Below, piece by piece: positions 17,014 through 40,252 of a stretch of 59,957 nt of DNA. The notes under the pieces are model-generated. The model searched no databases. It had not been told where the DNA came from and saw only the letters and a program-made list of their open reading frames with translations. The stretch is taken from contig JAFAUR010000176.1 in the NCBI GenBank assembly GCA_019243205.1, positions 1-59,957 of the forward strand, written 5' to 3'. Every line of letters begins with the position of its first letter. Positions within the stretch are counted from its first letter, which is position 1. The DNA is from Acidobacteriaceae bacterium. Its GTDB lineage: Bacteria > Acidobacteriota > Terriglobia > Bryobacterales > Bryobacteraceae. The translations under genes were made by a program, and so were the position numbers.

Positions 17014-17192
17014 CTCGCTCGCTTGTGCCGCCGTTTCCTAGACGGTTGGAGTGTGCTCATCAAGCGCCAGGCCGGTCTGTTTTGTATAGCACTCCTGCAT
17101 AATGGTTGTCACCGCATAGTCGGGAAGATCTGCGACCGCTAACCGGATTACGTAAACGGTTCGAGCGTCTTCATAAACCAGAGGAGAAAAGA

Positions 17193-24721: not shown

Positions 24722-25080
24722 CGCCAGAGCCTTCGCCACTATTACGCGCTTCACCTCTGGACCAGCGGTGAAGCTGAACCCGAGAAACTTCCGCTCCTGC
24801 CGTCGCGCTACCGCGCTCTTTGCTTCATTCACGTTGAGTTTGAGCTTGTGCGTGATGAACTGCGTAATGCTCTTCATCACGCGCTGACCTGCCCGCTCGC
24901 TGCGAACGTTAGATATCACAATCATCCGCATAGCGAACGAAACGAAGTCCACGGCGCTCCAACTCCCGGTCGAGTGCATCAAGCACAACATTGCTGAGCA
25001 GTGGCGAAAGCGACCACCCTGTGGGGTCCCTTCTACACTTGGGCCGACCAGTCCGTTCTCCATCACTCCCGCCGGACGGT
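24722..25080 (-). pseudogene. group II intron reverse transcriptase remnant, C-terminal half (RT domains ~3-7, start of X), frameshifted
   Basis: AGVMENGLVGPSVEGTPQGG, then in another frame LSPLLSNVVLDALDRELERRGLRFVRYADDCDI, then back to VRSERAGQRVMKSITQFITHKLKLNVNEAKSAVARRQERKFLGFSF. The YADD box and flanks are classic group II intron IEP sequence. Confidence 0.8.
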
Positions 25081-25239
25081 GGGATGCGAAGCTTGGCATC
25101 CCGACGGTGCTGGATCGATTTATCCAGCAAGCGGTGATGCAGGTTCTGCAACGGCGCTCATCAAGCAGTAGCGCAGGCACAGCAGTATGTCGCCGAAGGC
25201 TACGGCTGGCGCGTCGATCTTGATCTGGGGAGGTTTTTC
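25062..25239 (+). pseudogene. group II intron reverse transcriptase remnant, N-terminal part (RT domains ~0-2), on the opposite strand
   Basis: The plus strand reads KLGIPTVLDRFIQQAVMQVLQ (25089-25151). After a frame change and deletion it reads AHQAVAQAQQYVAEGYGWRVDLDLGRFF (25156-25239). These are the conserved RT1/RT2 blocks that should precede the minus-strand half. Confidence 0.7.
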
Positions 25240-25322
25240 CTATGGTGCGACACGGTAGAATCCGACGTCCACGAATCACGATGGCGTCGTTGGATTGCGT
25301 TACAGATGTCCGGCTGACTCCT

Positions 25323-26885
25323 TCACCGCTCCTGCCGCGCAGACTGCAACAGGAACTCGAATTGCGGTCTTGTAGAATCGGGTGTCACCGTGATCTTCGT
25401 GTCCAAGTGCAGCACCAGTTTCTCCTTGTCGTAACGAGGCCAGTGCCATAGTCCTTCGCCGTTCGGATCGCCGGCCCGGGCAAAATTCGCCCAGTAGCGC
25501 GTCATCTCATCGCTCAAGACGTAGTCTTGCGGCCGCCACTGCGCTCCATGCCGCGTGTCCAGCGTGCCGAACACATATTCGAGCTCGTCAGAGTGGAACG
25601 CATATTTCCCTTCGGGATGAACCTCGCTCGGCGGCGCGGCCAAGTCGAAACGATAGCGATACACCGGCGCCGCGCCAGTATTCACCTGGGCTTCGATCCA
25701 CCTCCACGTTCCGAGAGCAATGAATTGCGCGGTGGTAAGAGCATCGGCCGATTGGATCGCCTCATCATCGCTTCTTCCCTGAAATGCCGCCAGGAACTCA
25801 TCAGCTCGTTTGCCGTAATGGTCTGCGGCGAACGCCTTCCATTTCTTTGAAGTCATGCCTTTGGACAAGGTGCCCGCCCTCTCGTCACGATTCCATCCAG
25901 CCAGCAGTGGGACGTGCGCCTGATTGCCCGCGGTATAGGTTTCGGGGATGCTTTGCTTCAGGAAGCTGCCGTCGATCACCGGGGTAAACCATCCGACTCC
26001 CTTCTTCTGCGCCCCCTCGATCACCTTGGCCGTGGACATCTGCCGAAACTCCGCGAGACCTCGTACCCCTAGCGAGTCCACCCACTCCTGATCGCGCCGT
26101 ATTCGCGCGGCTAGTGACCCCGCCGGTAAGACGTCGCTGAATGCTGCGCCGCTCTCGCCGATCGCCTTCTGGAACAGTCCTCGTGCTCCCGGTGTCGCCA
26201 TCAAGGTACTCACCGCGAACGAGCCTGCACTCTCACCAAAAATGGTGATGTTGTTCGGATCACCACCGAATCGAGCAATGTTGGCCCGCACCCATCGAAG
26301 AGCGGCAACCATGTCCATCAGTCCGTAGTTGCCCGCCGACCCGCCCCCCTCTTTCGCAAGGTCCTCGCTGGCCAGAAACCCGAAGACTCCCAGCCTGTAG
26401 TTAATCGTGACCAGCACAACCCCTTGAAGTGGCAATGTCGAATTGGTGTACCGCGGTTCTGAACCCGCACCGGCTGTATAGCCGCCTCCATGGATCCAGA
26501 ACATGACCGGCAAACGGCCGCTGTTATCCGCTGCGACAGGAGTGTAGACGTTGAGGTAAAGACAATCTTCGCTGGGTCCAGGATCAAGAAAGAGGTAATC
26601 ACTCCAGATCTGCCATTGCCCACAGCGCGAGCCGAATTTGGTTGCATCGCGCACCTGCTGCCAGGAGGCCGGCGGTTGCGGCGGCATCCAGCGCAGCGGT
26701 CCCACAGGCGGAGCAGCATATGGCAGGCCCAGAAACGCGTGAACCTTTCCGCCGCTGATCAGCTTACCCTGCACTTCGCCTTGTGCAGTAGTCACCCTGG
26801 GCGAACTGGCGGCAGCATGCCCACCAGCCCGAATCGCAAATGCTATGACGGCCATCGCAGATGCCAAACGTACTGTTCGAAACAT
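25323..26885 (-). CDS. carboxylesterase type B (para-nitrobenzyl esterase-like), exported
   Basis: FGESAGS nucleophile elbow, EDCLYLNVY, HGGGY. The start is taken at MFRTVRLASAMAVIAFA (signal peptide); the ORF extends to 26966. Confidence 0.9.
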   Translation of the reverse strand: MFRTVRLASAMAVIAFAIRAGGHAAASSPRVTTAQGEVQGKLISGGKVHAFLGLPYAAPPVGPLRWMPPQPPASWQQVRDATKFGSRCGQWQIWSDYLFLDPGPSEDCLYLNVYTPVAADNSGRLPVMFWIHGGGYTAGAGSEPRYTNSTLPLQGVVLVTINYRLGVFGFLASEDLAKEGGGSAGNYGLMDMVAALRWVRANIARFGGDPNNITIFGESAGSFAVSTLMATPGARGLFQKAIGESGAAFSDVLPAGSLAARIRRDQEWVDSLGVRGLAEFRQMSTAKVIEGAQKKGVGWFTPVIDGSFLKQSIPETYTAGNQAHVPLLAGWNRDERAGTLSKGMTSKKWKAFAADHYGKRADEFLAAFQGRSDDEAIQSADALTTAQFIALGTWRWIEAQVNTGAAPVYRYRFDLAAPPSEVHPEGKYAFHSDELEYVFGTLDTRHGAQWRPQDYVLSDEMTRYWANFARAGDPNGEGLWHWPRYDKEKLVLHLDTKITVTPDSTRPQFEFLLQSARQER

Positions 26886-27119
26886 GTTCAAAGGTTCTCC
26901 TGTGACCCGGGAGGTGTTTGTGCGCGCTGCTGCCGCCGGTTCCGGTCGGGTTCTTTGACCGTTCAAGTATACGCGTATAGGTGTCCCGCGCTCAGGTACG
27001 CCTGTCTTTGATCGTCCGATACAGTTTCACGGACCGTGTTCACACCTCGCGGTCTTGGAGTGGTGGTGCTGCGATTAGTCCGTCGGCGGCGTGGGACGGT
27101 TCACTGGCGGGCTATAACG

Positions 27120-28982
27120 CTAAGTCACTGTCCAGATGCAACCGTAGTTGCTAGGTACAGTGAACGTCTGCCCAGCTCCCGCCACAACACCCCTCAAGTT
27201 CTGTGTGGTCTCGATCTGCTCGACGTAATTCCCACTATGTGGGAACACAAAGCTTGCCGTCTGTTGCTGGTTCGTGAAATTCACGACAACCAGGCTGAAC
27301 ACACTTCCGAGTTGTCGCGAAAACGCCAGCAAACCCTTGGAATTGAAATTACCCTCGTCGTTATAAAAGAAATGGCTGCCGTCGGTGAATTGCGATCCGC
27401 CACGACGGATGTTCGTGAGTTTTCGCACTAAGCGGATGATTGGCCGGCCGTCGTTGTCGTAGAAATAGTTCCAGCGTACTGGGCGATATAACATGACCCG
27501 CCCATAGCCACTTCCTGGAATCCAATAGTTCTCACAGAATTCCTGGCCTTCGCAAAGCAGAGGCGTCCCCTTGCTCGTCAGCAACGCAATCAGATACGGC
27601 TGAACGTTCGGCCACTTTCCGTACCTGTCACCCTCCTGAAGCAAAACGTCGTCCGGATTGTTGTCGATCGGGACCGTGCCGAAATTGCAAATGAACCGCT
27701 GATGATCGTGGTTCTCCACGTATTGAAGCGCGGTCTTGGGAATTGTGTCATTGTTCGCCGTCATCGACGTTGGGTATCCATTGAGCCCCAGCTGCAGTCC
27801 CAGTTGTGTAATCGCACCGGGCTGTCCGGCCGCACAACTCTCGGCTGCCCCAAGCGTGCCGTCCTGCCAGGTGCCGGTGCTGTAACTTCCATATAGGATC
27901 TCGGGCGGATTCGGCAAGTATTCGGCGATCTGAATCAGATTGATATCCCCAGCTGAATCGAAGAACCGCTGGTAGTGGTCTGTCGCACTCGCTTTCGATT
28001 TGACATATTGATACGTTGAGTAAACAAGGTTGGCATACCCTGAGCCCGTCGGACCGTCCCAATACTCCGGCACATCATCGAACCGGAATCCGTCCACGTG
28101 AAACGTATCCAACCAGAACTGATTTACCGAATAATAGTAATCCTGCGTGAGCTGCTTGGAGAAATCATTCAGGATCCCGTAGTCTCCGTTACCGTCATTG
28201 AACGGGTTCGGGAGATCGTTCTGCAAAGCAGTGTAAAGCTGGGTGTAGGCGAAGTCATCGCCCGTGTGACCGTATACCGAATCCACAATCACCGCGATTC
28301 CGTTCTGGTGACATTCGTCGACGAAATGCTGAAAATCGGATGGTCCGCCGAAACGCTCCGCGACGCAAAAGTAACCGATCGGATCGTATCCCCAGTCAAT
28401 CGTGCTCAAGACATTGGATACGGGCATAACTTCGATGCAGTTAATGCCCAGATCCGCCAGGTAGGGTAGCTGCCTGATGGTGCGATCGAGGTCGTTACGG
28501 AACTCGCTGATCATTAATTCGTAGATGATCGCGTTCTTAAGAGGCGGCGTTTTCCACCGCGTTTCGCTGGCGGAAAACGCGTAGGGAGTGGACCCGACAG
28601 TAATAGCCGACAAACGGCCTACGCCGACCTCGCGCGAGAACGGATCGATAATGAAATCAATATCGCCGCGCACGGGACTTCGAATCACGTATCGGTAGAC
28701 ATAACGACCGGCTTGTCCGAATGCAGTCGATCCGGGCGGAGTTGCCGCGGTGTTTAGATCGATGGTCCCTGACCAATAATCGCCGTACATCGCGTCCACA
28801 GAGTGAGTTTGCGCTGCGACCGCTGGTTGAGCGGCCTGCAGGTACTGGTCCGTTTCGTGAATGATTTTGACTGAGACGGCGTAGCCCTTCCCCGGATCGA
28901 CGCCAGGCAGAAAAATTCCAAACTGAATGACCTTGGACGATATTTCAAGGGCGCCCAATTTGTTCATCGGAAGATACTTCAT
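27120..28982 (-). CDS. GH13 alpha-amylase-family glycoside hydrolase with N-terminal E-set/CBM48-like domain
   Basis: GH13 conserved regions DSVYGHT, GFRFDDV and YVENHD. The start is taken at MKYLPMNK with a GGAGG RBS; the ORF extends to 29009. Confidence 0.9.
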   Translation of the reverse strand: MKYLPMNKLGALEISSKVIQFGIFLPGVDPGKGYAVSVKIIHETDQYLQAAQPAVAAQTHSVDAMYGDYWSGTIDLNTAATPPGSTAFGQAGRYVYRYVIRSPVRGDIDFIIDPFSREVGVGRLSAITVGSTPYAFSASETRWKTPPLKNAIIYELMISEFRNDLDRTIRQLPYLADLGINCIEVMPVSNVLSTIDWGYDPIGYFCVAERFGGPSDFQHFVDECHQNGIAVIVDSVYGHTGDDFAYTQLYTALQNDLPNPFNDGNGDYGILNDFSKQLTQDYYYSVNQFWLDTFHVDGFRFDDVPEYWDGPTGSGYANLVYSTYQYVKSKASATDHYQRFFDSAGDINLIQIAEYLPNPPEILYGSYSTGTWQDGTLGAAESCAAGQPGAITQLGLQLGLNGYPTSMTANNDTIPKTALQYVENHDHQRFICNFGTVPIDNNPDDVLLQEGDRYGKWPNVQPYLIALLTSKGTPLLCEGQEFCENYWIPGSGYGRVMLYRPVRWNYFYDNDGRPIIRLVRKLTNIRRGGSQFTDGSHFFYNDEGNFNSKGLLAFSRQLGSVFSLVVVNFTNQQQTASFVFPHSGNYVEQIETTQNLRGVVAGAGQTFTVPSNYGCIWTVT

Positions 28983-29212
28983 AAAGACCTCCGAGCATGG
29001 AGTAAACAATGATCCGCTAAGTATATCTTTGGTGGCGCACCCGACCGGGCAAAACGAGCTACAGCATAGGCGGACGGAAGCACGCCACCGGTACCGACGG
29101 CACTTTCACCCCATTGAACACACGGACGGGGCTTGTGCACCTCCGACCTGCCGCTCGCGAGGTGTCCTTCGATGTCCACCAAAGTGCATGATTGTGAAAC
29201 ACCGCGAGGGCA

Positions 29213-30040
29213 TCATGACCCGGTGTTATCAGAGGCGGCAGCTGTTCCCACCAGCAGCATATAGATCGTCGACTCGTTTACGCCATCCAAACCCAGATAG
29301 CGGTCGATCGCCCGATCGTTATAACCGCCGATGTTAGCCGTCACTAAGTTCATTTCCTGCGCGGTCAGATTAGCATTTTGGGAAAGATGCCCTGCCTCAA
29401 ACAACACAAAACGATATCCGCGATCGCCGTATTTGAACGTGGAGCGTGCAAACACAGCCGAGATCATAAGGATTGCCGCGGCGCCGCGTCCTAAATCGCT
29501 CTGAACCATCATGCACGAGATGGTCTCTGATTCGTCGGCGTTTCGGAGAATGTCCAACGCATGGTCTTCGGGATCATAGTGATACAGTCCCGGCTGCAAT
29601 CCATGAACCCGCGTTGCATGTATGTAGATCTCGAGCGGATACAGTGCGCCGCCCGAGGGGATCACCCGAAAGGGCCGAGGATAGCTGGTTCCCGCATTGC
29701 TTCGGTTTACGCCGTAGCTCATCACCAGAATTTTGGCCAGCTGCTCAAGTGGCATAAAGCCCGAACCAAAGCTACGGGCCGTGTGCCTGGTGTGGAGAAC
29801 ATCATCGAAGGACTTGCTGGATGCGGGCAAGCTGGTAGGTAATGCAAGCTTAGGAAAGTCTGCGTATGGTTTCACGCGTCGCAGCATGTTCATGCCCGCA
29901 ACCACGGTGGCGTCGCTGGGCCAAAACTTAAACAGGTGATGCAACTCAACGAAACTCGTCTTAGAGTTTTCGTGGAATAGCTCCCAGTTCGCGTCGTAAT
30001 CGGATTGCAAGAAATGATAATCGAGAGATTCGAAGGCCAT
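29213..30040 (-). CDS. SagB/McbC-type FMN-dependent azoline dehydrogenase (set 1, B1)
   Basis: WELFHENSK N-terminal signature, RVIPSGGALYPLEIY, and FKYGDRGYRFVLFEAGH (Lys-Tyr motif present). Last gene of the RiPP operon. Confidence 0.9.
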   Translation of the reverse strand: MAFESLDYHFLQSDYDANWELFHENSKTSFVELHHLFKFWPSDATVVAGMNMLRRVKPYADFPKLALPTSLPASSKSFDDVLHTRHTARSFGSGFMPLEQLAKILVMSYGVNRSNAGTSYPRPFRVIPSGGALYPLEIYIHATRVHGLQPGLYHYDPEDHALDILRNADESETISCMMVQSDLGRGAAAILMISAVFARSTFKYGDRGYRFVLFEAGHLSQNANLTAQEMNLVTANIGGYNDRAIDRYLGLDGVNESTIYMLLVGTAAASDNTGS

Positions 30041-30046
30041 AGCTGG

Positions 30047-31393
30047 TTATGGAAAAGGATGTGGATACGGGTTATCGGGTTCGTTTCTTGCCAACCCGCG
30101 ATGGCCGAGCTTTCGAGGAACCTCGTAGAGACGGGTGACACCGAGAGCGCGGTTGCGATGCCCCATGTAAAGCGGGTGTGCACCGGGTACGACAACTCTG
30201 ACCACGTGCAGACCGAGCTCGGCGACGTCAGGAGTAGTTAGTTCGACAACGAGCGGTTCGAGGCCGGCGGCAACGGTGTTTTCTACCAATTTGCGAAGCT
30301 GTTCAGAGGGCGAACCCGCAGACAGATCCGGCTCATCGCAGAGATCGATCTGACGAGTGGACGACCAGGCAAATTCGGCGAACGGCTTGGCATATTGCGG
30401 ACAATAGAACCGCAAGTGATCGCGCTGGTCCTTCACGAGAGGATGTCCCCGATCCACTTCGACCGGCAGCGGTGGCGTGTAGCGAAGAAGCTGCCGGGCA
30501 TACATTCGCGTGTGCGCGAGTTCGTCAAGCGATTTCAGTAGACAACGTTCTGGTGAAGGATCCGCAGCCGCCGCAACGGCGACCGCCGGCGATGTTTCCG
30601 CGTTAGAGACGCCGACGGTCATGATGGCCGGAACGCCTATGTCAGTCGTGATGTCCATCAGGTACACCCTGATGCCGACAGCCTCGAATCGCGAGACCAG
30701 GTCACAACCAAAAGCCGGCAGAGTTTCATGGCGAATAACAGGACAACTCATCATCGCCTGCCATGTGATTGTGAACGCGTCACGTTCCAGAACTTCGCAA
30801 AGTCCGGAGATCGTAGCCTCCGCAATCGAACCGCCACAGGCCAATCCCGTCGAGATTGGCTGCAGAATAAAGGCACTGCGAGTTGCCCCGTGGTAATGAA
30901 ACGGGATGTAGACAGCTGCTGCCGGCACGAACACTCGCTCTCCGGTAACCAGCGATCTAGCCGGCGTCCAGTGCACAGGTGTATCGACTGTAAACGGATG
31001 CCAAAGGAAGCCTTCCGACAAATACTGCTCCGGAAGATACATGGTGAGAAGCTCAGGATGTACTGCGCGGAGGTTTAATTCGCGATGGGCCGCGAACCGA
31101 AAACCGGCAGGATCATAGATGGCGCTGCAATAGCGTTCGATGGCTTCACCCATCGCCTTAGCAATGGCGCTGTAGCGGTCTGTTGAGGCTCCACCGTTAT
31201 CACCGAAGTTACGCATTGCGGTGAAGCGAGACGCGTCGCACGCTTTCGAAAAGTAGTGGAAGAAATCGGGATCGTCATCATCGACGGGCAATTCTTCGAT
31301 CCGTTGAATGATCCCTACTTTCGGGTCGACCAATTGATCCCAAAGCCCAACTATTTGTTCCAGCCGTGCGCGGCTCCGGGTGCTCAGCGGCAT
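30047..31393 (-). CDS. YcaO-domain cyclodehydratase (set 1, D1)
   Basis: Canonical MGEAIERYCS and CEVLERDAF motifs. Pro-rich C-terminus NPYPHPFP. Confidence 0.9.
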   Translation of the reverse strand: MPLSTRSRARLEQIVGLWDQLVDPKVGIIQRIEELPVDDDDPDFFHYFSKACDASRFTAMRNFGDNGGASTDRYSAIAKAMGEAIERYCSAIYDPAGFRFAAHRELNLRAVHPELLTMYLPEQYLSEGFLWHPFTVDTPVHWTPARSLVTGERVFVPAAAVYIPFHYHGATRSAFILQPISTGLACGGSIAEATISGLCEVLERDAFTITWQAMMSCPVIRHETLPAFGCDLVSRFEAVGIRVYLMDITTDIGVPAIMTVGVSNAETSPAVAVAAAADPSPERCLLKSLDELAHTRMYARQLLRYTPPLPVEVDRGHPLVKDQRDHLRFYCPQYAKPFAEFAWSSTRQIDLCDEPDLSAGSPSEQLRKLVENTVAAGLEPLVVELTTPDVAELGLHVVRVVVPGAHPLYMGHRNRALGVTRLYEVPRKLGHRGLARNEPDNPYPHPFP

Positions 31394-31414
31394 GCAGACA
31401 ATTCCCGGGCGCGC

Positions 31415-32476
31415 TTATTCATGCGGAATCAGACTGCCGACAATCAGCGCCCGGGAAGCTTTTCGCATGATCTCGCCACAATCCGGACAGCGTGGGATCT
31501 TCAGTATACGGCGAACGGTGGAAGAGAATGAAAACAGATTCAGTTCGATGCTCCGGCCGGCTGTATCTGGCGGCGGGTACCCAGCAATGAATTTCACAAC
31601 CTCAATGGCCGCGATCTCGCCGAGCGCAGAGGCCATGGGAGGAAGCAGTCCCGCGGAAACCATGCTGCCCGGATTGGCGCTTGCGTGACGCCGAAGCGCT
31701 CGCCCGGCGGCATAGTTCGGATTGTTGGATTCCCTTCTCAAGAAGTAGCAGCGGAGACAGGCATTTTCATACGGGTGATTGAGAGGTCCCACATAGCCGA
31801 GCAGGTCCGCCTGCCAAACGGGAAGGAACGGCTTCTCGATTCTCAATGCGGTTCGGCTAAACTCGAGCAGCGCATCGCCTTGATCGAAGTCACTCGTTGC
31901 ACAGATAACCGAGCATTCTGACAGTTCTCCGTCGGAGGACAATTCGGGCACGCGTCGCAGGCGGTCTTCGCCCGGTTGGAATCCAACCGGTGCTACCTCG
32001 TTGTTCAAATTAGTGTCATCCACCAGCGTGATCCTGCCAATGCCCGATTCCAGGAGGCTGCGCAGCATCGCTCGCGCTATCAAAGTAACTCCTGCAACCA
32101 CAACATGCGCGTTCCCGAGCCGCTGTGGAGCATTGCGACCCTCCTCGCCCATGTTCCACCAGAATGCCGTTTGAAGTGACTCGAGGCTTGCCTCGTTGAC
32201 GTCCGGCCCCGGCTCTTCTGTGATGAGCCTCCGAAGCTGCATCGTGGTCAGCAAGTTGCCGACTTCGCCACGCAAATGTTCCGGAAAGCTATCCACAATG
32301 TCTTCGGGCGTACGGCTCCCATCGAACTGTTGGATGAGCGACTCGAGGATAGAGTGCACCTGAGCGCCACTAACTACCAGCTCATTGACGCCGCGCTTCA
32401 GAACCGCAGTATCATCAGAAACCCGGACGTATCGAAGATCGGTGCCGTACACTTTGTCCTCTCTGATTTTTGGCAT
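31415..32476 (-). CDS. TOMM cyclodehydratase C protein / E1-like leader-peptide-binding partner (set 1, C1)
   Basis: N-terminal RRE-like VLKRGVNELVVSGAQVHSILESLIQQFDGSRTPEDIV. Cys pairs CLRC ... CPDC. Adjacent to the YcaO gene. Confidence 0.85.
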   Translation of the reverse strand: MPKIREDKVYGTDLRYVRVSDDTAVLKRGVNELVVSGAQVHSILESLIQQFDGSRTPEDIVDSFPEHLRGEVGNLLTTMQLRRLITEEPGPDVNEASLESLQTAFWWNMGEEGRNAPQRLGNAHVVVAGVTLIARAMLRSLLESGIGRITLVDDTNLNNEVAPVGFQPGEDRLRRVPELSSDGELSECSVICATSDFDQGDALLEFSRTALRIEKPFLPVWQADLLGYVGPLNHPYENACLRCYFLRRESNNPNYAAGRALRRHASANPGSMVSAGLLPPMASALGEIAAIEVVKFIAGYPPPDTAGRSIELNLFSFSSTVRRILKIPRCPDCGEIMRKASRALIVGSLIPHE

Positions 32477-32511
32477 GCCGGCGTAATTGCTTGGTGAGCA
32501 ATCGCGCCGGC
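32477..32511 (-). promoter_or_regulatory. RNA stem-loop between the precursor gene and C1, ending at nucleotide -1 of the C1 start codon
   Basis: The mRNA sense reads GCCGGCG-CG-ATTGCT-CACCA-AGCAAT-TA-CGCCGGC followed directly by ATG. This gives 7 + 6 bp of stem around a 2x2 internal mismatch and a 5-nt loop, with no U-tract. Confidence 0.5.
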
Positions 32512-32531
32512 AAATTTATATTCCGGTAGCG

Positions 32532-32921
32532 TTATACGGCGAGGGGATCGACCTGCACCGCGGCTGAACAACAGGAGCAGCAGGGAGTACAGCAGCAGCA
32601 ACAGCTATCGCCTAATGCCTTAACATTCTGTGGAGTGTGGACACTAGTAAGCTTGTTTACTCCCTGGAAATTCGCGATCACCTGATATCGATAATCGGCA
32701 AAGAGACCGTCAATGGTAACCAGGTCGTGTGTAGTCAGCGCATTCACCTTGGGATTTTCCACAGGAGCAGGCGGCACACCAAAGGCCATCGCCATATCTG
32801 CAAAGTCGGCCGGGGTCATGCTGCGGACTGTGTGTGAGGTTTTGAAGCTGTCCAGTTTCTCTGCGGGAAAGATTTCCTCAACAGAGAACCGTTTCTTGTC
32901 TCCACCAGGTGGAGGATTCAT
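32532..32921 (-). CDS. RiPP precursor peptide with Cys/Ser/Thr-saturated core
   Basis: 129 aa. AGGAG lies 7 nt upstream of the ATG. The C-terminal region reads ..KALGD SCCCCCTPCCSCCS AAVQVDPLAV. It sits between two cyclodehydratase/dehydrogenase sets. Confidence 0.8.
   Translation of the reverse strand: MNPPPGGDKKRFSVEEIFPAEKLDSFKTSHTVRSMTPADFADMAMAFGVPPAPVENPKVNALTTHDLVTIDGLFADYRYQVIANFQGVNKLTSVHTPQNVKALGDSCCCCCTPCCSCCSAAVQVDPLAV
32565..32606 (-). other. predicted core-peptide segment SCCCCCTPCCSCCS (codons 106-119 of the precursor)
   Basis: The mRNA reads AGC TGT TGC TGC TGC TGT ACT CCC TGC TGC TCC TGT TGT TCA. Confidence 0.7.
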
Positions 32922-32936
32922 CTTTACTCTCCTTTC

Positions 32937-33779
32937 TCATAACGTTGTTACTTCCGCTACGCGGCCCTGCCGGCCGCCCCTTTCATGCGCACCAGCTTTG
33001 CCCACCGCTACGATGAAAATCGTGGATGCGGTGAGTCCGTCGAGCGCAAGAAAATCGTCTATTGCCGGGTCAAAGTATTCACCGGTGTTCACGCAGGACA
33101 ATCGAAGAGACCCTGCAATCAGGTTCAGATTGCGGACGACTGCGCCGGCTTCCTGATGTACAAACCGATAACCGCGATCTCTATATCGCAAAACAGAACG
33201 CTCCGGCACAGCTGAGATCAAAACGATCAAGGCGGCCGAGAGCGCGACACGCCCATCTATCAATGCGGCGGCGATCTTCTGCGATTGATCACCGGAACGC
33301 AACAGTCGCAGTGAATTGCCGGGTGGGTAATAGTGATAAAGACCACGTTCGAGGCCCGCGATGCTCGCGTTGTGAACAAAAAGTTCGAGTGGATAAGATG
33401 AATTTTCAGAATGAACAGCCCGGCGCTGGCGCGCGCTGTCCGGATCCGGACGCCGTTCCATAATGCCGTAGCTGTAGTGCAACAGCGCCGCCGCCGCGTC
33501 TAGCGGGACTGTGATCGGTTCCAGTTCGGTAACCACCGCGTTACGCGCGAGCGCTTCCTGTAAAGGCTCCGATCCCAGGGCCGCAGGGTTCGGCAGTTTG
33601 ATCTCCGGGTAGCTCTCGAATCTCAGCGATTCCAGTATCTGCTTCTGATAGAAAGCCGTCACTTCTGCAGGCAGGATGCCGTCGTTCGAAAACAATTTTG
33701 AATTCTCATGGAAAAGCTCCCACGGCGAGTCATGCTCGGGTAACGGCGTCGTCAGGAGCTCCCAAGTTGTCGAAATCAC
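32937..33779 (-). CDS. SagB/McbC-type dehydrogenase paralogue (set 2, B2), divergent
   Basis: WELFHENSK signature and DRGYRFVHQEAG are present. However, B2 has LRY where B1 has FKY, and HSENSSYP where B1 has PSGGALYP. Its GTG start overlaps the D2 stop (GTGA). Confidence 0.85.
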   Translation of the reverse strand: MISTTWELLTTPLPEHDSPWELFHENSKLFSNDGILPAEVTAFYQKQILESLRFESYPEIKLPNPAALGSEPLQEALARNAVVTELEPITVPLDAAAALLHYSYGIMERRPDPDSARQRRAVHSENSSYPLELFVHNASIAGLERGLYHYYPPGNSLRLLRSGDQSQKIAAALIDGRVALSAALIVLISAVPERSVLRYRDRGYRFVHQEAGAVVRNLNLIAGSLRLSCVNTGEYFDPAIDDFLALDGLTASTIFIVAVGKAGAHERGGRQGRVAEVTTL

Positions 33780-35101
33780 GACATCACTCCTTTTCGTGGG
33801 AAAGGATGGGGCAACGGATTATCTCCGGTCTCTGGCCTAATGCCGCCGAGGCTCAGCCCTTGCGGAACTTCCCACAACCGGCACCCTCCTAAAGCGCGTG
33901 AACGGTAGCCGAAGAACAGTGGATGCAGACCCGGAATGATGGCACGGATAACTGTCAGCTCGAGGTCTGCGACGTCTGATGTCGTCAGGTTTGCAAGTAC
34001 TGTGTAATAACCAGCCGCCTCGATATTGTTGAGAAGCTTTTGAAGATCGCGACCCGGATATCCGGTAGATAAATCCTCTAACTGGTCGAATTCGATTCGT
34101 TCGCGCGACGAGAATACAAAATCGGCTTGTGCGGAGTTCCGCGGATCGGACCAGAACCGCAAATGCTCACTCTGATCACGAACGCTTTGCGGATCTCGAT
34201 ATCCACAATCCTGCGCTCTCAACAGCTGGCAATACTGATGAACGTGAGCAAGCATTTCGAGGCTTTTACGGACTCCATTTTCCGGAGTCAAACTGGTTCC
34301 GGCTGCAAAGGTCCGGGCTGGCGCTCCCGGGCGAGAATCTGACAGCACTGCAAGAATGCTGGGTATTCCGAGGTCGAACTCAACCTTGAAGAGCGTGACC
34401 GAAGCACCAGTACTTTCAAATCGCGTCACAAGCTCATAATTGGCGTCGCTCAAGGTCTCCACTCGGATTTGTGGCATGCTCAGCCTCGCCTGCCAAAGCA
34501 GCGCAAGAGCATCACATTCGATCACATCGCAAATTGCCTCTGTCGCTGCGCAAGCGGCAATCCAGTGGCAGGCAAGACCGGTTGAAGTGGGCGGCATAAT
34601 CGGCGCCTCGTCAAACCCGAGGACGGCGGGAGCGGTCAGGAATCGCATCGCGGAAGGAATAAAAACAGATGCCTCTGTTACCGGGTTTACGGCTTCGCTC
34701 CACTGAACCGGTGTGTGTCGACTAAAAGCGACCCAGGGGAAATCGGGCTGCGTATACTGTTCCTCGCTAAACAAGGCGAAATCTTCGGGAACAACACAAG
34801 GAAAAGGCGCGCCGTGGGCTGGGCCAATCGGATGCTTGCCATCTTCCTCCGAGATCAGCGCCGCGCAATACGAGGCGATGCCGTCGAGAACCACGCGTGT
34901 CACAGCACTCTTCCGATCTGCCCCGGCTGCCCCGCCCGGTCCCGGAATCGCGTACTCGCTAAATGCGCGCGTGCTGCACGGGTGAACCACGTAGTGGAAA
35001 AATGATGGAGCGCCTGGCGCAAGACGCATCTCCGCTACTGAGCTGAGCACGCCCACCTCATTATCGACTAACTTGTCGATCAGCTGCGTGATTCCGTTCA
35101 T
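33776..35101 (-). CDS. YcaO-domain protein paralogue (set 2, D2), with substituted acidic motifs
   Basis: It aligns by eye with D1 along its length and has the Pro-rich C-terminus NPLPHPFP. The motifs read VLDGIASYCAA and CDVIECDAL. The start is taken at MNGITQ, which forms an ATGA overlap with the C2 stop. Confidence 0.85.
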   Translation of the reverse strand: MNGITQLIDKLVDNEVGVLSSVAEMRLAPGAPSFFHYVVHPCSTRAFSEYAIPGPGGAAGADRKSAVTRVVLDGIASYCAALISEEDGKHPIGPAHGAPFPCVVPEDFALFSEEQYTQPDFPWVAFSRHTPVQWSEAVNPVTEASVFIPSAMRFLTAPAVLGFDEAPIMPPTSTGLACHWIAACAATEAICDVIECDALALLWQARLSMPQIRVETLSDANYELVTRFESTGASVTLFKVEFDLGIPSILAVLSDSRPGAPARTFAAGTSLTPENGVRKSLEMLAHVHQYCQLLRAQDCGYRDPQSVRDQSEHLRFWSDPRNSAQADFVFSSRERIEFDQLEDLSTGYPGRDLQKLLNNIEAAGYYTVLANLTTSDVADLELTVIRAIIPGLHPLFFGYRSRALGGCRLWEVPQGLSLGGIRPETGDNPLPHPFPRKGVMS

Positions 35102-36171
35102 TGGCCCTCTTCTGTTCTTGGCATCGATAAAGATGCGCGCGTCAAAGCTGTAGAGGGAGTCCGGTTGAGGCGGGAACAAACGGGACAACGCGGGACCTTT
35201 AGGACCTGCAGCGGTTTCATCTCGCTGCCAAGCAAGTTGACTTTGATCAGAGTCCCCGGCCTCGCGATGCTGCCGCCAATGCCAAAGTATTTCGTAATCT
35301 CGAGGGCAGCAATGTCACCGAGAATGGTTGCCATGGAAGGATGAAATCCGCCGATAGCCTGCTTATGAATGAAGGCGGCTTCCACTGCTCGTCGGCTTTG
35401 AAAGTCGAGCAAATGCGCATTCTGCCGGAGCCGGACGCATTCGAAACAGGGGGTTTGACCGGGCACAACAATCGGACCGACATACCCGACGAGGTCCTGA
35501 AGCATCACGGGTACGAACTGCAGGTTGTGGAGCACGCAAAATTCATTCCATAACCGCATTTGTTCGACGCCGCCGCTGTCGGAAGTGGCGATAACACAGT
35601 CGAGAGTATCCGGATCAAGATCTTCAGCGTATTCACTTACAGGGGCAGACCATTCCCGCATCCGAAGAGCACCGCCGTCATCAAACAGAGCTTCATTACG
35701 AAGCAATGGTTGGTCGATGACCTCAAGCTCTTCAGCGCCCGATGCTCGCAGACCGGCTATGAGCTGACGCGAAATATAGTTTACGCCTGTTATCTTGATG
35801 CGCTTCGCATTTAATCTCTCGCGGACCTGCGCAGTTTGTGTACCGAAGTGCCAATAGAAAACCTCGAGCTGCGATTCAGAGGTGCGCCCATCGGCCGCCG
35901 GTGTCTCCTCGCTCACGAGGATCGACCGGCTCAGCAGATGATCAATCAAGGCTTCAGCACCCGCGACTTCGCCCGCTGGGAAGAGCGCGACGAGTTCGTC
36001 ACGGGTTGCGCCATTGCGGGCGCAATCGAGCAGGCGGCCTACCGCGTCTGCGGCTCCGGTTCCGGCGATCCTCAGTTCGACTCGTCCGCGCTTGAGTACG
36101 AGAGCGTCCCCTGTGTCGATCAGGTTTACCGGGAGGACCCGAAGCTTTTCGGATTGGAGTTCCAGTTTCAT
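35098..36171 (-). CDS. TOMM cyclodehydratase C protein / E1-like partner (set 2, C2)
   Basis: RRE-like LVLKRGRVELRIAGTGAADAVGRLLDCARNGATRDELV. Cys pairs CFEC ... CPVC. ATGA overlap with the upstream radical SAM stop. Confidence 0.85.
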   Translation of the reverse strand: MKLELQSEKLRVLPVNLIDTGDALVLKRGRVELRIAGTGAADAVGRLLDCARNGATRDELVALFPAGEVAGAEALIDHLLSRSILVSEETPAADGRTSESQLEVFYWHFGTQTAQVRERLNAKRIKITGVNYISRQLIAGLRASGAEELEVIDQPLLRNEALFDDGGALRMREWSAPVSEYAEDLDPDTLDCVIATSDSGGVEQMRLWNEFCVLHNLQFVPVMLQDLVGYVGPIVVPGQTPCFECVRLRQNAHLLDFQSRRAVEAAFIHKQAIGGFHPSMATILGDIAALEITKYFGIGGSIARPGTLIKVNLLGSEMKPLQVLKVPRCPVCSRLNRTPSTALTRASLSMPRTEEGQ

Positions 36172-37547
36172 GCGTTCAGGATCGGGAACTCACAACTGGG
36201 CTGCGGGGGAGCAGGTTGAAATGTGCGCTCGGCTTCTACCATCGTCAACGCGCTTGGGCGATGCGGCGCATACACGCCTCCAAAAACCCGATACAGGTCT
36301 TGATACTCGTGTTCAAAGACACTCTTCGGCAAGGCGGTTTGTGTGACTGGGTGCTGCAGATCAAATAATTCCCAGTTAGGCCTCCCGTTGGGCTGGCGCT
36401 CCGTTATGGCATCGAACGTATCGAGCGCTTCGGTTCCCGGCAGCGGCGTCAAAACCGTGAACGATGGATAATCGACCCGGTTGTGCTCAATAAAGCGGAT
36501 TAACTGCTTGAAGCAGCGCTTGGTGTAATTGGTGTTCACTATGAACCCGCCAAACACATGTATGCCCAATTGTTTCGCTGCCCGAAGGCCGTTCTCTATC
36601 TGCGCTACGTCGAGCCGTTTGTTGTACTCCTTCAGTTCGTTCGCGGTTACCGCTTCAATGCCAATGAATAGCCGTTCCAGGCCGATTTCAGCCCACATGG
36701 CCATCAACTGTGGTTGGCGCAGAAGTGTATCGATGCGGCAGTACGTGAAGTAGCGTTTGCGGATTCCCGCAGCCCTGATAGCCTGGGCAAGCAGCGTCAT
36801 CCGCTTGCCATTTATAAAAGCCTCGTCATCTACCAGGAAAATCGATTGTTCTTGAACAGAGGCGATCTCCGCAACTACACGGTCGACATCACGCATGTGA
36901 TAACGGCCATCTTGGATCTTCCAAAGCGAGCAGAAGGAGCAGCGATACGGGCATCCAACCGTTGTGCGCAGTAGTGCGATTGGTTTCATCCAATCGATGA
37001 AATAACTTTGGCGGTCCGGACCGGCAATGAAACGATTTGGCGAGGGAAGTTGATCGATGTTGTACGAGAGAGGGTTACCGCCGTCGACGAACTCGTCGCC
37101 TGTGCGCGCCCAGACACCGGGGATGGTCTCCGGAATACCGCGTTCCAAGCCACGCAGGATCGCGCGAAACGGATGAACTCCTTCCCCTCGGACAACAAAA
37201 TCGAACTGAGGCAGGAAGAAATCCTCCGGAAGCAGCGTGGCGTGATGCCCGCCAACGACTACCCGGCATGCCGGCAAGAGCCCCTTGATTCGCTTTGCGA
37301 TCGCGATGTTACGCAGGACGTGCATGCTGTACCCGGTGAGAGCTGCAACATCGGGCCGATATTGGGTCAAGGTGGAGTCGAGATCATTCGGGTGCAGCCG
37401 TAAATCGAGAAGCCGGACATCATGGCCATCGAGTTCCGCGCCCGCTGCCAAATATTCCAGAGCAAGCGGTTCAGCTACGGCGCCCAGATCTCCGTACCCA
37501 ATGATCTCCTTGCGCAGACTGGGATACAAAAGAAGAACTCTCAACAC
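36168..37547 (-). CDS. B12-binding-domain radical SAM enzyme (class B, putative methyltransferase) #2
   Basis: N-terminal B12-binding-like VLLLYPS..LEYLAAGAELDGHDVRLLDL. Radical SAM cluster motif GCPYRCSFCSLW. The start is taken at the GTG at 37547, overlapping the methyltransferase stop; the ORF extends to 37637. Confidence 0.85.
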   Translation of the reverse strand: MLRVLLLYPSLRKEIIGYGDLGAVAEPLALEYLAAGAELDGHDVRLLDLRLHPNDLDSTLTQYRPDVAALTGYSMHVLRNIAIAKRIKGLLPACRVVVGGHHATLLPEDFFLPQFDFVVRGEGVHPFRAILRGLERGIPETIPGVWARTGDEFVDGGNPLSYNIDQLPSPNRFIAGPDRQSYFIDWMKPIALLRTTVGCPYRCSFCSLWKIQDGRYHMRDVDRVVAEIASVQEQSIFLVDDEAFINGKRMTLLAQAIRAAGIRKRYFTYCRIDTLLRQPQLMAMWAEIGLERLFIGIEAVTANELKEYNKRLDVAQIENGLRAAKQLGIHVFGGFIVNTNYTKRCFKQLIRFIEHNRVDYPSFTVLTPLPGTEALDTFDAITERQPNGRPNWELFDLQHPVTQTALPKSVFEHEYQDLYRVFGGVYAPHRPSALTMVEAERTFQPAPPQPSCEFPILNA

Positions 37548-38377
37548 GCCCCCTGCCTCTGTTCCTCTCTGTGCGCAGTGACCATGAAGCTGTGCGGCAC
37601 GTCCTTGAGCGTTCGCGGCAAAACCGGATAGGGCCAACGTCCTTGGCCTGCTCCAGGTTCTCCGGGAGACGTTACATGAGCTGACCAGCCGAGCAAACGA
37701 AGCAGTCCCTCGGGGTCATCAGTAGCCGAAAGCCAAGGTGTCCCGTTCTTAGCGAGGGAGTCCAGCGCTGTTCTCATCCAGGGACTTGTCAGGAAAGAAC
37801 GGCTAATGAAATCCGCCGCGAGAGCGCTGCCAGGCGCGCTGTCTTCCGATAAACGAGCGAGTATCTCCGCTACAGCGTTCTCTTGTAAGTAATAGAACAG
37901 ACCCTCAGCAATCCAGAGAGAGGGCGCGTTAGCTCGAAATCCAGCAGCCCGAAGCGCGCTGGTCCACGAGCCTTCCAGATCCGTGCCTACCGCGACTCTG
38001 CGACACAGGGCTGGAGAATCCCTGCCCAGGATTCTGTTCTTAACCTTGAGCAACTCGGGATCATCGAGTTCAAAGACAGTTGTACTCGCCGGCCACTCCA
38101 GCCGGAGTGCGCGAGTGTCCATTCCTGCTGCCACGAGTACCACCTGTCGAATGCCGTCGTTCGCTACGGAGACAGCGAATTCATCGAAGAAGCGCGTGCG
38201 GATCGCTATATAGGGGCCCACATCCGGCATGCCACGCTCGGGCGAGCGAAGCATTTTGAACCCTTCCTCTCCCGCCAGGGATCGCGCGAAGGGATCTGTG
38301 AAAAGACGATCGGGACGTTCCGATTCCAGAGCCCGAATCGCAGCTGTCATCAGAGCGGTATGTGCGACCTTTCTCAA
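37541..38377 (-). CDS. class I SAM-dependent methyltransferase, leucine carboxyl methyltransferase (LCMT / TIGR00027-like) family
   Basis: TALMTAAIRALES..LFTDPFA, VLVAAGMDTRALRL and VFELDDPELLKVK are typical of this O-methyltransferase family. Confidence 0.85.
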   Translation of the reverse strand: MRKVAHTALMTAAIRALESERPDRLFTDPFARSLAGEEGFKMLRSPERGMPDVGPYIAIRTRFFDEFAVSVANDGIRQVVLVAAGMDTRALRLEWPASTTVFELDDPELLKVKNRILGRDSPALCRRVAVGTDLEGSWTSALRAAGFRANAPSLWIAEGLFYYLQENAVAEILARLSEDSAPGSALAADFISRSFLTSPWMRTALDSLAKNGTPWLSATDDPEGLLRLLGWSAHVTSPGEPGAGQGRWPYPVLPRTLKDVPHSFMVTAHREEQRQGAC

Positions 38378-38587: not shown

Positions 38588-40252
38588 TTATGCACGCGGC
38601 AGCGGTGGCGATTTACGGCTCAAAATTTCGTGTAACGCAGCGAACTCGGGTGCCGCGCGAATAGCGCTCGCGGATACATCCTTACCCAAAAAGCGATTGA
38701 AAGCGCTTACGCCGAGGCGCACATCGTCAACAGAGAAACCATTTGCGTACAACAAAAACTCCGTCCAAGCCTCGCCGCGCACAGCATTATGAACGGCGTA
38801 CCTCTGCTCTTCCGCCACTTTTCTGGCAAGTACTTGCGCGGTTCGCGAATCCATGGTGTTGTGTTTCCAGTCCATACCCATACCCTCGATACCGAATTCC
38901 ACCGCACGGGCTCCCACCGGTGTGGATGGAATGTAGACCCACGTGCAGACCGTGCAGAACGGAAGCTGCATCTCGTCCAGGAAACTTACAATCTTCCAGG
39001 CCGAATCTTCCGTCTCTCCCGGATAACCCACGATGAAGTTCGCATGAACCTCAATGCCGTATTTGCGTAGGTGGTCAATACCGCGCTTGTACTGCTGTAC
39101 CTGGGCGACCTTGTTCATGTTTTTCAGAATCCGATTGTCAGCGGATTCCAACCCGGCAAAAACCGCCCGGCAGTGCGATTCCTTCATCAGCCGGGCTGTC
39201 TCTTCGTCCGCATATTGCGGACGAAAAAAGGAATACCATTCGAAATCGAACTTGGCCAATACTTTGAGTAACTGTTTGAAACGGCCAAGCGGCACGTTGA
39301 AGGTATCGTCCGTAAAAATCAGGGAGCGCACCGAGCCCAGCTTGCGCAGTTCCTGCAGCTCCCGATCTACAACCTCCACCGGTGTCAACGTGAGCGGTCC
39401 CTGATTAACCGGGTATTCACAAAAGGCGCACTTGAACGCACAGCTTCGCGCGGTGCGTATGTGAACGGTGTGATACAGGTGATCCGTTTGCGGTAATCGG
39501 CTCCAGTGAATGAATGGTTCGTCCGTCTGGAAGGGCGGCTCCGGCGCGTCCGGGGGTGGGATGACGCTGCGGCCACAACGTATGTAGGTACGGGGAATGC
39601 TCGGGTCCGTGATGAGCGCCTGGAGCGAGGACCGTCGAAGTATCTCAAGTAAGGGCACTTCGCCGCGCGGGCTCACAACGTACAGATCCGCGCCATAGGA
39701 TTGCAATTGTGAAAGAAAAATTGGGCGAGGAAGATTTTTCTCGTAACTTACAAGCATTAAGCCCCCGAGAACGATCAGCGCATCTGGCCACTCTTTGCGG
39801 ATTTGGGCGATCGCAAGGGGAATGGTTTCTCTCTCGGCGGCGTCGAAGAGAAGCGTAGTGGAAAGCAGAATGAATCGGGGCTTGTATTCGCACCCGAGGG
39901 CGCTCAAGCGCTCGCGGTTAACCGAGTTAGCGACGCGCACCTTGAACCCGTGGCGCGAAAGCACGTCAAGGTAGTAACTGCCCGCAAGCAGGGTTAGGTT
40001 GAACGGATCATAGCGTTCATGCTCCCGGGTCGAGCCCGTTTTGACCCAGCTTAGGAATCGGCTAAAGTCATACAGCTTTCCGTCGATGACAAGGTCCACC
40101 TCATCCTTCATGAACAATTCATCGGATAATGCGGCGTGAATCCCGCGCGTTCGCGCCATGGACGGCCGCTCGTAGTCGAGATCTGTATCGTTGTGCCACC
40201 GATCCTCGTTGGCATAGAAAGGAATGAACAGCGCGTCCAGAGTCTCAGGCAT
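38588..40252 (-). CDS. B12-binding-domain radical SAM enzyme (class B) #1
   Basis: 554 aa. Radical SAM motif ARSCAFKCAFCEYP preceded by a Rossmann-like B12-binding-type region (RFILLSTTLLFD..LIVLGG). The start overlaps the hydrolase stop by 8 nt (ATGCCTGA). Confidence 0.85.
   Translation of the reverse strand: MPETLDALFIPFYANEDRWHNDTDLDYERPSMARTRGIHAALSDELFMKDEVDLVIDGKLYDFSRFLSWVKTGSTREHERYDPFNLTLLAGSYYLDVLSRHGFKVRVANSVNRERLSALGCEYKPRFILLSTTLLFDAAERETIPLAIAQIRKEWPDALIVLGGLMLVSYEKNLPRPIFLSQLQSYGADLYVVSPRGEVPLLEILRRSSLQALITDPSIPRTYIRCGRSVIPPPDAPEPPFQTDEPFIHWSRLPQTDHLYHTVHIRTARSCAFKCAFCEYPVNQGPLTLTPVEVVDRELQELRKLGSVRSLIFTDDTFNVPLGRFKQLLKVLAKFDFEWYSFFRPQYADEETARLMKESHCRAVFAGLESADNRILKNMNKVAQVQQYKRGIDHLRKYGIEVHANFIVGYPGETEDSAWKIVSFLDEMQLPFCTVCTWVYIPSTPVGARAVEFGIEGMGMDWKHNTMDSRTAQVLARKVAEEQRYAVHNAVRGEAWTEFLLYANGFSVDDVRLGVSAFNRFLGKDVSASAIRAAPEFAALHEILSRKSPPLPRA

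Follow-up and report, generated by a model that had tools for sequence, protein, structure and literature searches.

Two azole-synthetase triads of separate ancestry flank one poly-cysteine precursor gene: a probable pseudoenzyme set encoded next to a B12-binding radical SAM enzyme

The DNA analysed here, a stretch of 59,957 nucleotides from an Acidobacteriaceae bacterium (contig JAFAUR010000176.1; hereafter "the window"), contains a predicted thiazole/oxazole-modified microcin or linear azole-containing peptide (TOMM/LAP) cluster, in which two sets of azole-synthetase genes flank a single gene for a poly-Cys precursor peptide. Each set encodes an E1-like partner protein (C), a YcaO protein (D) and a SagB-type protein (B). 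Judging from the residues that it retains, set 1 (C1, D1 and B1) is an ordinary C-D-B member of the microcin B17 type, and azole formation is predicted for it. In set 2 (C2, D2 and B2), the D and B proteins have lost catalytic residues and the genes are nevertheless under purifying selection, which argues that this set is a pseudoenzyme and not a pseudogene. The reading that we somewhat favor on the basis of the sequences is that set 1 would be the working azole synthetase, and that set 2 would be a non-catalytic scaffold presenting the peptide to a B12-binding radical S-adenosylmethionine enzyme (B12-rSAM) encoded directly upstream of it. The parts of this reading do not have the same weight. 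Inactivity of set 2 in the canonical reactions is, in our view, very likely; the idea that it has been retained to serve or present substrate to the B12-rSAM has, in our estimate, slightly less than an even chance, the link being purely syntenic.

The initial annotation had described two full C/YcaO/SagB triads around one precursor gene. The gene boundaries could be confirmed, and all seven C, D, B and precursor genes are intact open reading frames (ORFs) on the minus strand. Together with the B12-rSAM gene they are the following (FMN, flavin mononucleotide; RRE, recognition element of RiPPs, the peptides that are ribosomally synthesized and then modified post-translationally; type I clusters are defined below):

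29213-30040, minus strand: B1, 275 aa, canonical SagB-type FMN azoline dehydrogenase
30047-31393, minus strand: D1, 448 aa, canonical YcaO cyclodehydratase
31415-32476, minus strand: C1, 353 aa, E1-like partner protein with an N-terminal RRE
32532-32921, minus strand: precursor peptide, 129 aa, long leader and poly-Cys core
32937-33779, minus strand: B2, 280 aa, SagB-fold paralogue with a degenerate FMN/catalytic site
33776-35101, minus strand: D2, 441 aa, YcaO-fold paralogue, ATP/Mg site degenerate and C-terminus blocked
35098-36171, minus strand: C2, 357 aa, E1-like partner with an N-terminal RRE, orthologue of the single C protein of type I clusters
36168 to ~37547, minus strand: B12-rSAM, probable C-methyltransferase

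Pfam and NCBIfam assign C1 and C2 to the ThiF/SagC-type, D1 and D2 to the YcaO/SagD-type, and B1 and B2 to the SagB/nitroreductase-type families, and there are no further YcaO, SagB or ThiF copies within the 60-kb window. The order of transcription is Rieske gene, hydrolase gene, PhpK-like rSAM gene, LCM methyltransferase gene, B12-rSAM, C2, D2, B2, precursor, C1, D1 and B1. Overlaps of 4 nt are present at the rSAM/C2, C2/D2 and D2/B2 junctions: the stop codon of the B12-rSAM gene overlaps the C2 start (ATGA), and the ATG of D2 overlaps the C2 stop codon (ATGA), giving a D2 protein of 441 aa, the length that is also called in public data. The LCM/rSAM junction likewise has overlapping stop and start codons, the likely start of the B12-rSAM being a GTG at 37547. 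In contrast, the genes of set 1 are separated by short intergenic gaps without stop/start overlaps.

The evidence for the loss of catalysis comes from the D and B proteins. D1 scores 290.5 bits against the SagD profile TIGR03604, above its cutoff of 219.25, while D2 (203.7 bits) falls under this curated cutoff. The D1 motifs GEAIERYC and CEVLERDAF align with LynD E423/E426/R427 and E548/E551/R552, as well as with CEAVERY and ELVERD of LynD/TruD, and D1 ends exactly at PHPFP (...PYPHPFP). Hence, D1 has both the YcaO Mg/ATP motif (ExxER, twice) and the terminal PxPxP, and D2 has neither. In D2, LDGIASYC stands in place of GEAxERYC and CDVIECDAL in place of CEVxERDAF; the two Mg-binding Glu residues of the first motif are changed (one into Asp, one into Ala), and the Arg residues of both motifs are lost. 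D2 ends in PHPFPRKGVMS, so that the PxPxP is covered by a 6-residue extension. It has been shown for the microcin B17 protein McbD that replacement of a Mg-binding Glu (E167A) almost abolishes processing, and that deletion of the C-terminal Pro cripples the enzyme (PMC6395948).

In the case of the B proteins, B1 scores 154 bits against TIGR03605 (cutoff, 78.4) and keeps R85/R89 (RHTAR), PSGGALYP, F-K203-Y204 and EAGH. It can be aligned with McbC, whose catalytic pair is K201-Y202 (PMC6395948), and its KY pair aligns with that of BmdC. The FMN-phosphate Arg and the catalytic Lys-Tyr pair are thus present in B1, and they are not kept in B2, which carries the substitutions R85N, R89T, P128H, K203R, H218A and G239E (B1 numbering); its motifs read HSENSSYP for PSGGALYP (PSGG to HSEN), R203-Y204 and EAGA. 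Of the 48 columns conserved across canonical B proteins, B2 retains 34, and with 104.3 bits it is still above the TIGR03605 cutoff, although its match to Pfam Nitroreductase is just 27 bits (residues 170-261). The best match of B1 among solved structures is PDB 3eo7, a protein of 511 aa with two tandem SagB-like domains, the first of which has R-Y where K-Y is expected, as in B2; 3eo7 is possibly a fused analogue of an active/inactive SagB pair.

Both C proteins, in turn, appear intact. Each passes the TIGR03882 cutoff (C1 with 52.4 bits against 36.9), and C2 retains every family-invariant residue. The proposal that each carries its own N-terminal RRE-like region and Cys-x2-Cys pairs is borne out by structure predictions and by the sequences. 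AlphaFold2 models built from alignments of public homologues (predicted local distance difference test scores, pLDDT, of 86.6 for C1 and 87.3 for C2) have an N-terminal domain (~residues 15-81) of three strands and three helices, after which comes an E1-like domain, and Foldseek matches both models over their full length to TruD, LynD, MccB and PaaA. In these four proteins, an N-terminal leader-binding domain (RRE) precedes the E1-like fold. In addition, a C1-family profile matches the isolated RRE domain of PbtF (E = 5e-4). The CxxC pairs, of the structural kind, are CLRC and CPDC in C1, and CFEC and CPVC in C2.

To place the two sets, we compared the window with ~50 related loci (L001 onwards, and contigs P0129 and P0153) collected from genome and metagenome scans and contig look-ups, all of which encode the same poly-Cys precursor family. 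They have three architectures. Type I clusters have one triad and comprise precursor, B12-rSAM, C, D, B, a ~780-aa protein, a Rieske gene and a hydrolase gene; they are found in Chloroflexia, Tateyamaria, Bryobacterales, Nitrospirota, Solirubrobacterales and Acetobacteraceae, and further in Chitinophagaceae, Spirosoma, Paracoccaceae, Undibacterium, Vulcanimicrobiota and Rugamonas rubra ATCC 43154. Type II clusters (L049, L050 and L052) consist of precursor, C, D and B of the set-1 lineage, without a B12-rSAM. Double clusters combine rSAM-C2-D2-B2 with precursor-C1-D1-B1 and include the window, L006, L013, L014, L018-L020, L022, L043, L044, L048, L051, L053, L054 and the P0129 contig. As to whether both sets co-occur in relatives, a question raised by the initial annotation, they do so in the double clusters, and single-triad loci of either type also exist.

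The distribution of the degenerate proteins follows these architectures. D and B are canonical in every single-triad locus of type I and type II, and degenerate D2 is confined to loci that have a second, canonical triad. GEAxERYC, CEVxERDAF and an end in PHP[FY]P are found in D1 and in at least 26 single-triad D proteins, and all three are missing in every case from the rSAM-linked D of double-triad loci. Where both D genes of a double cluster could be read, D2 is degenerate and D1 canonical (13 of 13; the comparison covered the window, L006, L013, L014, L018, L019, L020, L022, L043, L044, L048, L051, L053 and L054, with L018, L019 and L006 being near-duplicates). At least 14 distinct degenerate D2 clusters (50%-identity representatives) are present among the top 150 relatives. 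Of the 69 columns that are at least 95% conserved in canonical D proteins, the D2 clade keeps 48-50 (~70%). The ~20 changed columns correspond to D1 positions 62-68, 79-87, 178-180, 200-204 and 284-296 plus the last Pro, and cluster in the three helices of the ATP/nucleotide sphere and in the catalytic C-terminal tail; this clustering at the active site indicates that the site has been lost while the fold was kept. The C-terminal extension, too, is conserved across the whole D2 clade ([RN][KR]G). The residues at the former active site differ by sub-clade (EALRF/DAIRDD, RAVSV/DVIKED and AAVAA/DAIEHD); for example, D2 of L013, L014, L044, L051 and L054 has xEALRFYC, CDAIRDDAL and PHPYLNKG..., and sub-clade b has an Arg at the position of a Mg-binding Glu. 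Such varied substitutions fit the loss of an active site and not the gain of a new, defined one. Degeneration is graded: D2 is dead in all doubles by these features, while B2 is, depending on the sub-clade, nearly canonical (44 of the 48 conserved columns kept in L013, L014, L044, L051 and L054), degenerate, or deleted, as in L048, which retains C2-D2.

A B12-rSAM homologue accompanies set 2 in every double-triad locus with readable upstream DNA, directly upstream of C2, and is also found in type I loci, where it usually adjoins C. Among clusters with the set-1 lineage, set 2 and the rSAM are both present in at least 11 loci and both absent from three (L049, L050 and L052), and where this can be observed there is no locus with only one of them; the P0153 contig ends just after its rSAM and is thus uninformative. 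The B12-rSAM of the window has a CPYRCSFC motif and recognizable B12-binding and Radical_SAM domains (Pfam), and only these; no leader-binding domain of its own could be recognized. Its best NCBIfam match is HpnR-like (1.7e-70), under the cutoff of that family.

The relationship between the two sets was analyzed with neighbor-joining trees of modest sampling (200 bootstraps; the D tree was rooted with distant TOMM YcaO proteins). Set 1 and set 2 are only 28% (C), 37% (D) and 35% (B) identical, and C2 is 36-46% identical to type I C proteins, compared with 27-31% for C1. In the C and B trees, a split between {set 1 + type II} and {set 2 + type I} has 100% support in each. In the D tree, the D1 clade has a bootstrap of 100% and the degenerate D2 clade is monophyletic, also with 100%; D2 and the type I D proteins group together to the exclusion of D1 in 98% of replicates, and the type I D proteins alone are monophyletic in just 1.5%. 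A recent tandem duplication, one of the origins considered beforehand, can be rejected on the basis of these identities and trees, which instead make the double cluster a union of two ancient sister lineages. According to the trees, set 2 descends from the type I, rSAM-linked lineage and set 1 belongs to type II, and it is the lineage that brought the rSAM that lost catalysis, once.

The possibility that one triad is a pseudogenized copy has been partly substantiated, in that set 2 has lost catalytic residues; decay, on the other hand, is contradicted by its conservation. Compared with the L047 orthologues (86% amino acid identity), the ratio of nonsynonymous to synonymous substitution rates (dN/dS) is 0.11 for C2, 0.16 for D2 and 0.18 for B2. 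Intact set-2 orthologues are present in more than 10 independent contigs of a clade spanning ~40-86% identity, and the D2-type clade has dozens of intact members (mean column identity of 69% over 21 sequences). Pseudogene decay of set 2 was therefore rejected. In one locus, L006 (3115-10902; a metagenome-assembled genome of Solibacteraceae bacterium SbA4), frameshifts interrupt each of the rSAM, D2 and D1 genes. They most likely arose in the assembly, because the rSAM and D1 are affected as well and all three genes are uninterrupted in L018 and L019, two metagenome contigs that are near-identical to L006.

The gene between the two sets encodes a peptide with a leader of ~105 aa, and its ATG is preceded by a good ribosome-binding site (aaggagag). 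The core begins with CCCCCTPCCSCCSAA and the C-terminus reads GDSCCCCCTPCCSCCSAAVQVDPLAV; the part assessed for Cys/Ser/Thr richness was CCCCCTPCCSCCS, and a leader and a position adjacent to the synthetase genes were found as well. The leader contains two 13-residue copies of the motif [LM][TS]xxD[LIF]xx.xxxF:

32781-32819, minus strand: leader motif copy 1, MTPADFADMAMAF, precursor residues 35-47
32700-32738, minus strand: leader motif copy 2, LTTHDLVTIDGLF, precursor residues 62-74
32535-32603, minus strand: core region, CCCCCTPCCSCCSAAVQVDPLAV, precursor residues 107-129

The two copies are spaced by 20-27 residues in nearly all type I, type II and double-cluster precursors, the exceptions being L005 (41), L004 (37) and L002, in which a single copy was found; they may correspond to two RRE docking sites. 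The core signature CCCC[TS]PCC[CS]CA is kept in all related loci. Orthologues in L047, L018, L020 and L022 are 47-87% identical, and dN/dS relative to L047 is 0.14. Since the precursor matches no Pfam or NCBIfam family, an NHLP/Nif11-type or other curated precursor family was rejected. The family is widespread, with members in Acidobacteriota, Chloroflexota, Pseudomonadota, Bacteroidota, Nitrospirota, Actinomycetota, Myxococcota and Vulcanimicrobiota. A second precursor that would pair with one of the sets, as had been envisaged, was found neither by a six-frame scan for Cys-rich frames nor by tblastn with the precursor across the 60-kb window; Cys-rich frames other than that of the precursor are antisense or out of frame within real genes, such as the peptidase gene at 17106-18809. 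In L023 (2462-3306), two precursor genes are arranged in tandem between B2 and C1.

These observations can be combined in the following model. The locus would be a linear-azole (TOMM/LAP) peptide cluster made of two old, related modules. In the first, C1 would bind the leader, D1 would use ATP to cyclodehydrate the poly-Cys (and perhaps Ser/Thr) core to azolines, and B1, with FMN, would oxidize these to azoles. The second module (B12-rSAM-C2-D2-B2) would derive from a sister cluster type, in which one resident triad does everything. After the modules had joined, D2 would have lost its ATP/Mg site and free C-terminus, and B2, in the sub-lineage of the window, its FMN site and catalytic Lys, while C2 stayed intact. 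C2, through its RRE, and D2, through a YcaO fold with presumably a peptide groove, would then hold the precursor and present its core to the coupled B12-rSAM. We infer that set 2 persists because the B12-rSAM needs it. This role is suggested by the joint presence and absence of set 2 and the rSAM, their translational coupling, the intact state of C2 and the persistence of C2-D2 without B2, as well as by the limited domain content of the rSAM and the precedent of E. coli YcaO and RimO. Among the options of the initial annotation, a non-canonical role of one set is the one that best fits the lost catalytic residues of D2 and B2.

It should be noted that several observations weigh against this model. 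The link between set 2 and the rSAM consists solely of synteny and translational coupling, and three type I loci (L003, L026 and L028) have an rSAM gene that does not adjoin C. Type II clusters are represented by a small sample (three loci), the trees are neighbor-joining only, and the dN/dS values come from one pair. Moreover, three of the four positions remain acidic in D2 of the window's sub-clade (E to D, E to A, E to D, and one E kept) and, within this sub-clade (a), there is hardly any variation among the replacement residues (D73, D192, E195, C196 and D197), which leaves room for residual metal binding or a new D2 activity. D2, and perhaps B2, might therefore carry out a new reaction on the polythiazole peptide with a remodeled site that is ATP-independent or uses another cofactor or metal; the three Cys residues now around the former Mg site, the strongly purifying selection and the conserved C-terminal [RN][KR]G could be explained in this way. 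However, other D2 sub-clades with the same architecture have quite different residues, including the Arg of sub-clade b, so that there is no common new active site, and B2, which L048 has lost and which is close to canonical in sub-clade b, does not suggest a consistent new B chemistry. We regard such neofunctionalization as rather improbable. Somewhat less so, though unlikely as well, is that both sets form one heteromeric McbBCD-like complex, in which set-2 subunits fill structural positions of the azole synthetase independently of the rSAM. In McbB4C2D2, each half has one McbB that helps to form the peptide clamp and another that touches the nucleotide in McbD (PMC6395948), and C1 and C2, both of which are intact, could be specialized like the two McbB copies; a leader with two repeats could dock two RREs, and a heterotrimeric dehydrogenase complex with paralogous subunits has been reported for sulfomycin (summarized in PMC10634744). 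It would then be difficult to understand why one copy of each protein, together with the same two-motif leader, suffices in the single-triad relatives of both lineages, why set 2 is missing exactly where the rSAM is missing, why it is translationally coupled to the rSAM and not to set 1, and why B2 is dispensable in L048.

The initial annotation had favored two independent machines for leader recognition and heterocyclization that act on one substrate, dividing the work by residue (Cys versus Ser/Thr) or by core half, or processing it sequentially. Both triads are complete and both C proteins have an RRE, and two active YcaO proteins dividing labor are reported for sulfomycin (PMC10634744). 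Yet D2 lacks two Mg-binding Glu residues, both Arg residues and a free PxPxP terminus, B2 lacks the catalytic Lys and the FMN-phosphate Arg, and equivalent mutations nearly abolish the activity of McbD and McbC (PMC6395948); D2, furthermore, is below the SagD cutoff. Division of labor is disfavored in particular because single-triad relatives process CCCC[TS]PCC[CS]C cores with the same composition, Ser/Thr content included, as those of double clusters. Two active machines are thus improbable, and we attach still less credence to set 2 being a functionless relic on its way to pseudogenes, despite the missing catalytic residues, the absence of B2 from L048 and the D2 frameshifts of L006. As set out above, those frameshifts are attributable to assembly, and low dN/dS, intact ORFs in more than 10 independent contigs, the preservation of 70% of the fold-defining columns and of the overlapping start and stop codons are not what would be expected of a decaying gene set. 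Set 1, for its part, shows all the hallmarks of an active azole synthetase, and its lineage stands alone in type II clusters.

Like the microcin B17 synthetase McbBCD, the cluster has discrete C, D and B-type proteins and a precursor that combines a leader with a core rich in Cys/Ser; set 1 shows the Mg-binding Glu motifs, the Pro-rich C-terminal tail and the Lys-Tyr pair (PMC6395948), and in the C proteins an RRE is joined to an E1-like domain and CxxC pairs of the Zn type. Unlike McbBCD, it contains a second, catalytically degenerate copy of all three proteins, its leader is long and has two repeated motifs, its core is a near-contiguous poly-Cys stretch, and two rSAM enzymes are encoded in addition, along with a methyltransferase, a Rieske oxygenase and a hydrolase. 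The sulfomycin system (SulB-SulG; Du et al. 2020, as summarized in PMC10634744) resembles the window in that several RRE/E1-like paralogues, two YcaO proteins and a pair of dehydrogenase homologues serve one precursor; in sulfomycin they act in defined sub-complexes. There, however, both YcaO proteins are reported to be active and to split the work by residue type, whereas in the window only one YcaO protein has the catalytic motifs, D2 having lost its ATP/Mg site, and the set of paralogues is linked to a B12-rSAM. In addition, the window has no dehydratase or pyridine synthase genes, indicating that the product is not a thiopeptide.

The closest functional analogy for the proposed role of D2 is E. 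coli YcaO, which the name of NCBIfam NF040716 describes as an accessory factor of the radical-SAM methylthiotransferase RimO, and in which a YcaO fold likewise assists a radical-SAM enzyme. Neither D protein belongs to this family: the score of D1 is 17 bits, where the cutoff is 700, and D2 is not matched at E<=0.01. Unlike D2, E. coli YcaO reportedly retains its ATP-binding site, and it stands outside any C-D-B triad. Non-catalytic RRE proteins that present a precursor to modifying enzymes are known from the Ocin-ThiF-like proteins HcaF and TclI (PMC10634744). These are single scaffold proteins of a different fold family, whereas the putative scaffold of the window is a whole set of former enzymes (E1-like, YcaO and SagB). 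A limited literature search yielded no description of a conserved, catalytically degenerate YcaO/SagB set or of this poly-Cys precursor family, which appears to be uncharacterized. Set 2 may be the first recognized case of a whole azole-synthetase triad turned into a conserved pseudoenzyme complex, made up of a pseudo-YcaO, a pseudo-SagB and an intact RRE protein, that docks the precursor or a polythiazole intermediate for a B12-rSAM, a claim that we put forward only tentatively.

Upstream of the B12-rSAM gene, the cluster continues with genes for predicted tailoring enzymes:

37541-38377, minus strand: LCM/TIGR00027-type SAM-dependent methyltransferase, tailoring gene
38588-40252, minus strand: second radical SAM enzyme, PhpK-like, 554 aa
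40245-41126, minus strand: alpha/beta hydrolase with Abhydrolase_6 and Abhydrolase_1 matches, start codon uncertain
41044-41994, minus strand: Rieske/KshA-like non-haem iron oxygenase with PF00355 and PF19298 matches

The Rieske gene is conserved across all three cluster architectures, and the hydrolase gene is kept beside it in most related loci. The PhpK-like rSAM (TIGR04479, 9.9e-103, under the cutoff) recurs in the subtype-a double clusters L019, L020, L022 and the P0129 contig, and in the P0153 contig; it is not found in type I clusters. The LCM methyltransferase (PF04072, 5.5e-51; TIGR00027, 227.8 bits against a cutoff of 93.55) has no homologue in the related loci examined and appears to be a lineage-specific tailoring step. 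The ~780-aa protein, which has weak tetratricopeptide repeat (TPR) matches and is absent from the window, is encoded directly downstream of B in type I clusters (e.g., L008, 12190-14529); homologues are present in L001, L003, L005, L009, L020, L024, L036, L039 and other loci, and in L020 and L021 the gene lies upstream of the rSAM. Proteases vary across the family: in L048 (5653-13324), the order rSAM-C2-D2-precursor-C1-D1-B1 is followed by a caspase-like (C14) peptidase, the P0129 contig encodes a PatG-like subtilisin with macrocyclase domains and an extra ThiF protein, S8 peptidases are found in L050 and L052, and an M36 peptidase in L053. LuxC/LuxE-like and cytochrome P450 genes lie beside many type II and double clusters. 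Some products of the family may be macrocyclized or acylated.

Downstream of B1, two further genes separate the cluster from a pair of mobile-element-like ORFs:

25323-26966: carboxylesterase gene
27120-29009: alpha-amylase-family gene

The two adjoining mobile-element-like ORFs (126 and 309 aa; 23966-25279, minus strand) resemble integrase/transposase and reverse-transcriptase fragments, have no Pfam match at E<=1e-3, and may be mobile-element remnants ~4 kb downstream of the cluster. Scans of the window found no cobalamin riboswitch, other RNA elements or tRNAs, and a promoter and terminator scan returned sites that are rarer than in shuffled sequence and hence uninformative.

In summary, the locus is not a new class of system, but it would be a clean case of the conversion of an enzyme into a pseudoenzyme inside a RiPP pathway. 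If the model is right, duplicated RiPP machinery does not automatically mean two active enzymes, and genome mining that counts YcaO proteins would mis-predict the chemistry. The family would also provide a natural experiment on the non-catalytic roles of the YcaO and SagB folds, which are active in single-triad relatives and present as a dead copy in the doubles. This would bear on how E. coli YcaO assists RimO, a question of long standing, and YcaO folds might turn out to be general adaptors for radical-SAM enzymes, as hinted at by that pair. Finally, it would reveal a contiguous-polythiazole peptide family that is spread over at least eight phyla and has one member in the cultured strain Rugamonas rubra ATCC 43154; the products predicted for this family, stretches of adjoining thiazoles with probable C-methylation and oxygenation, would be of an unusual chemical kind.

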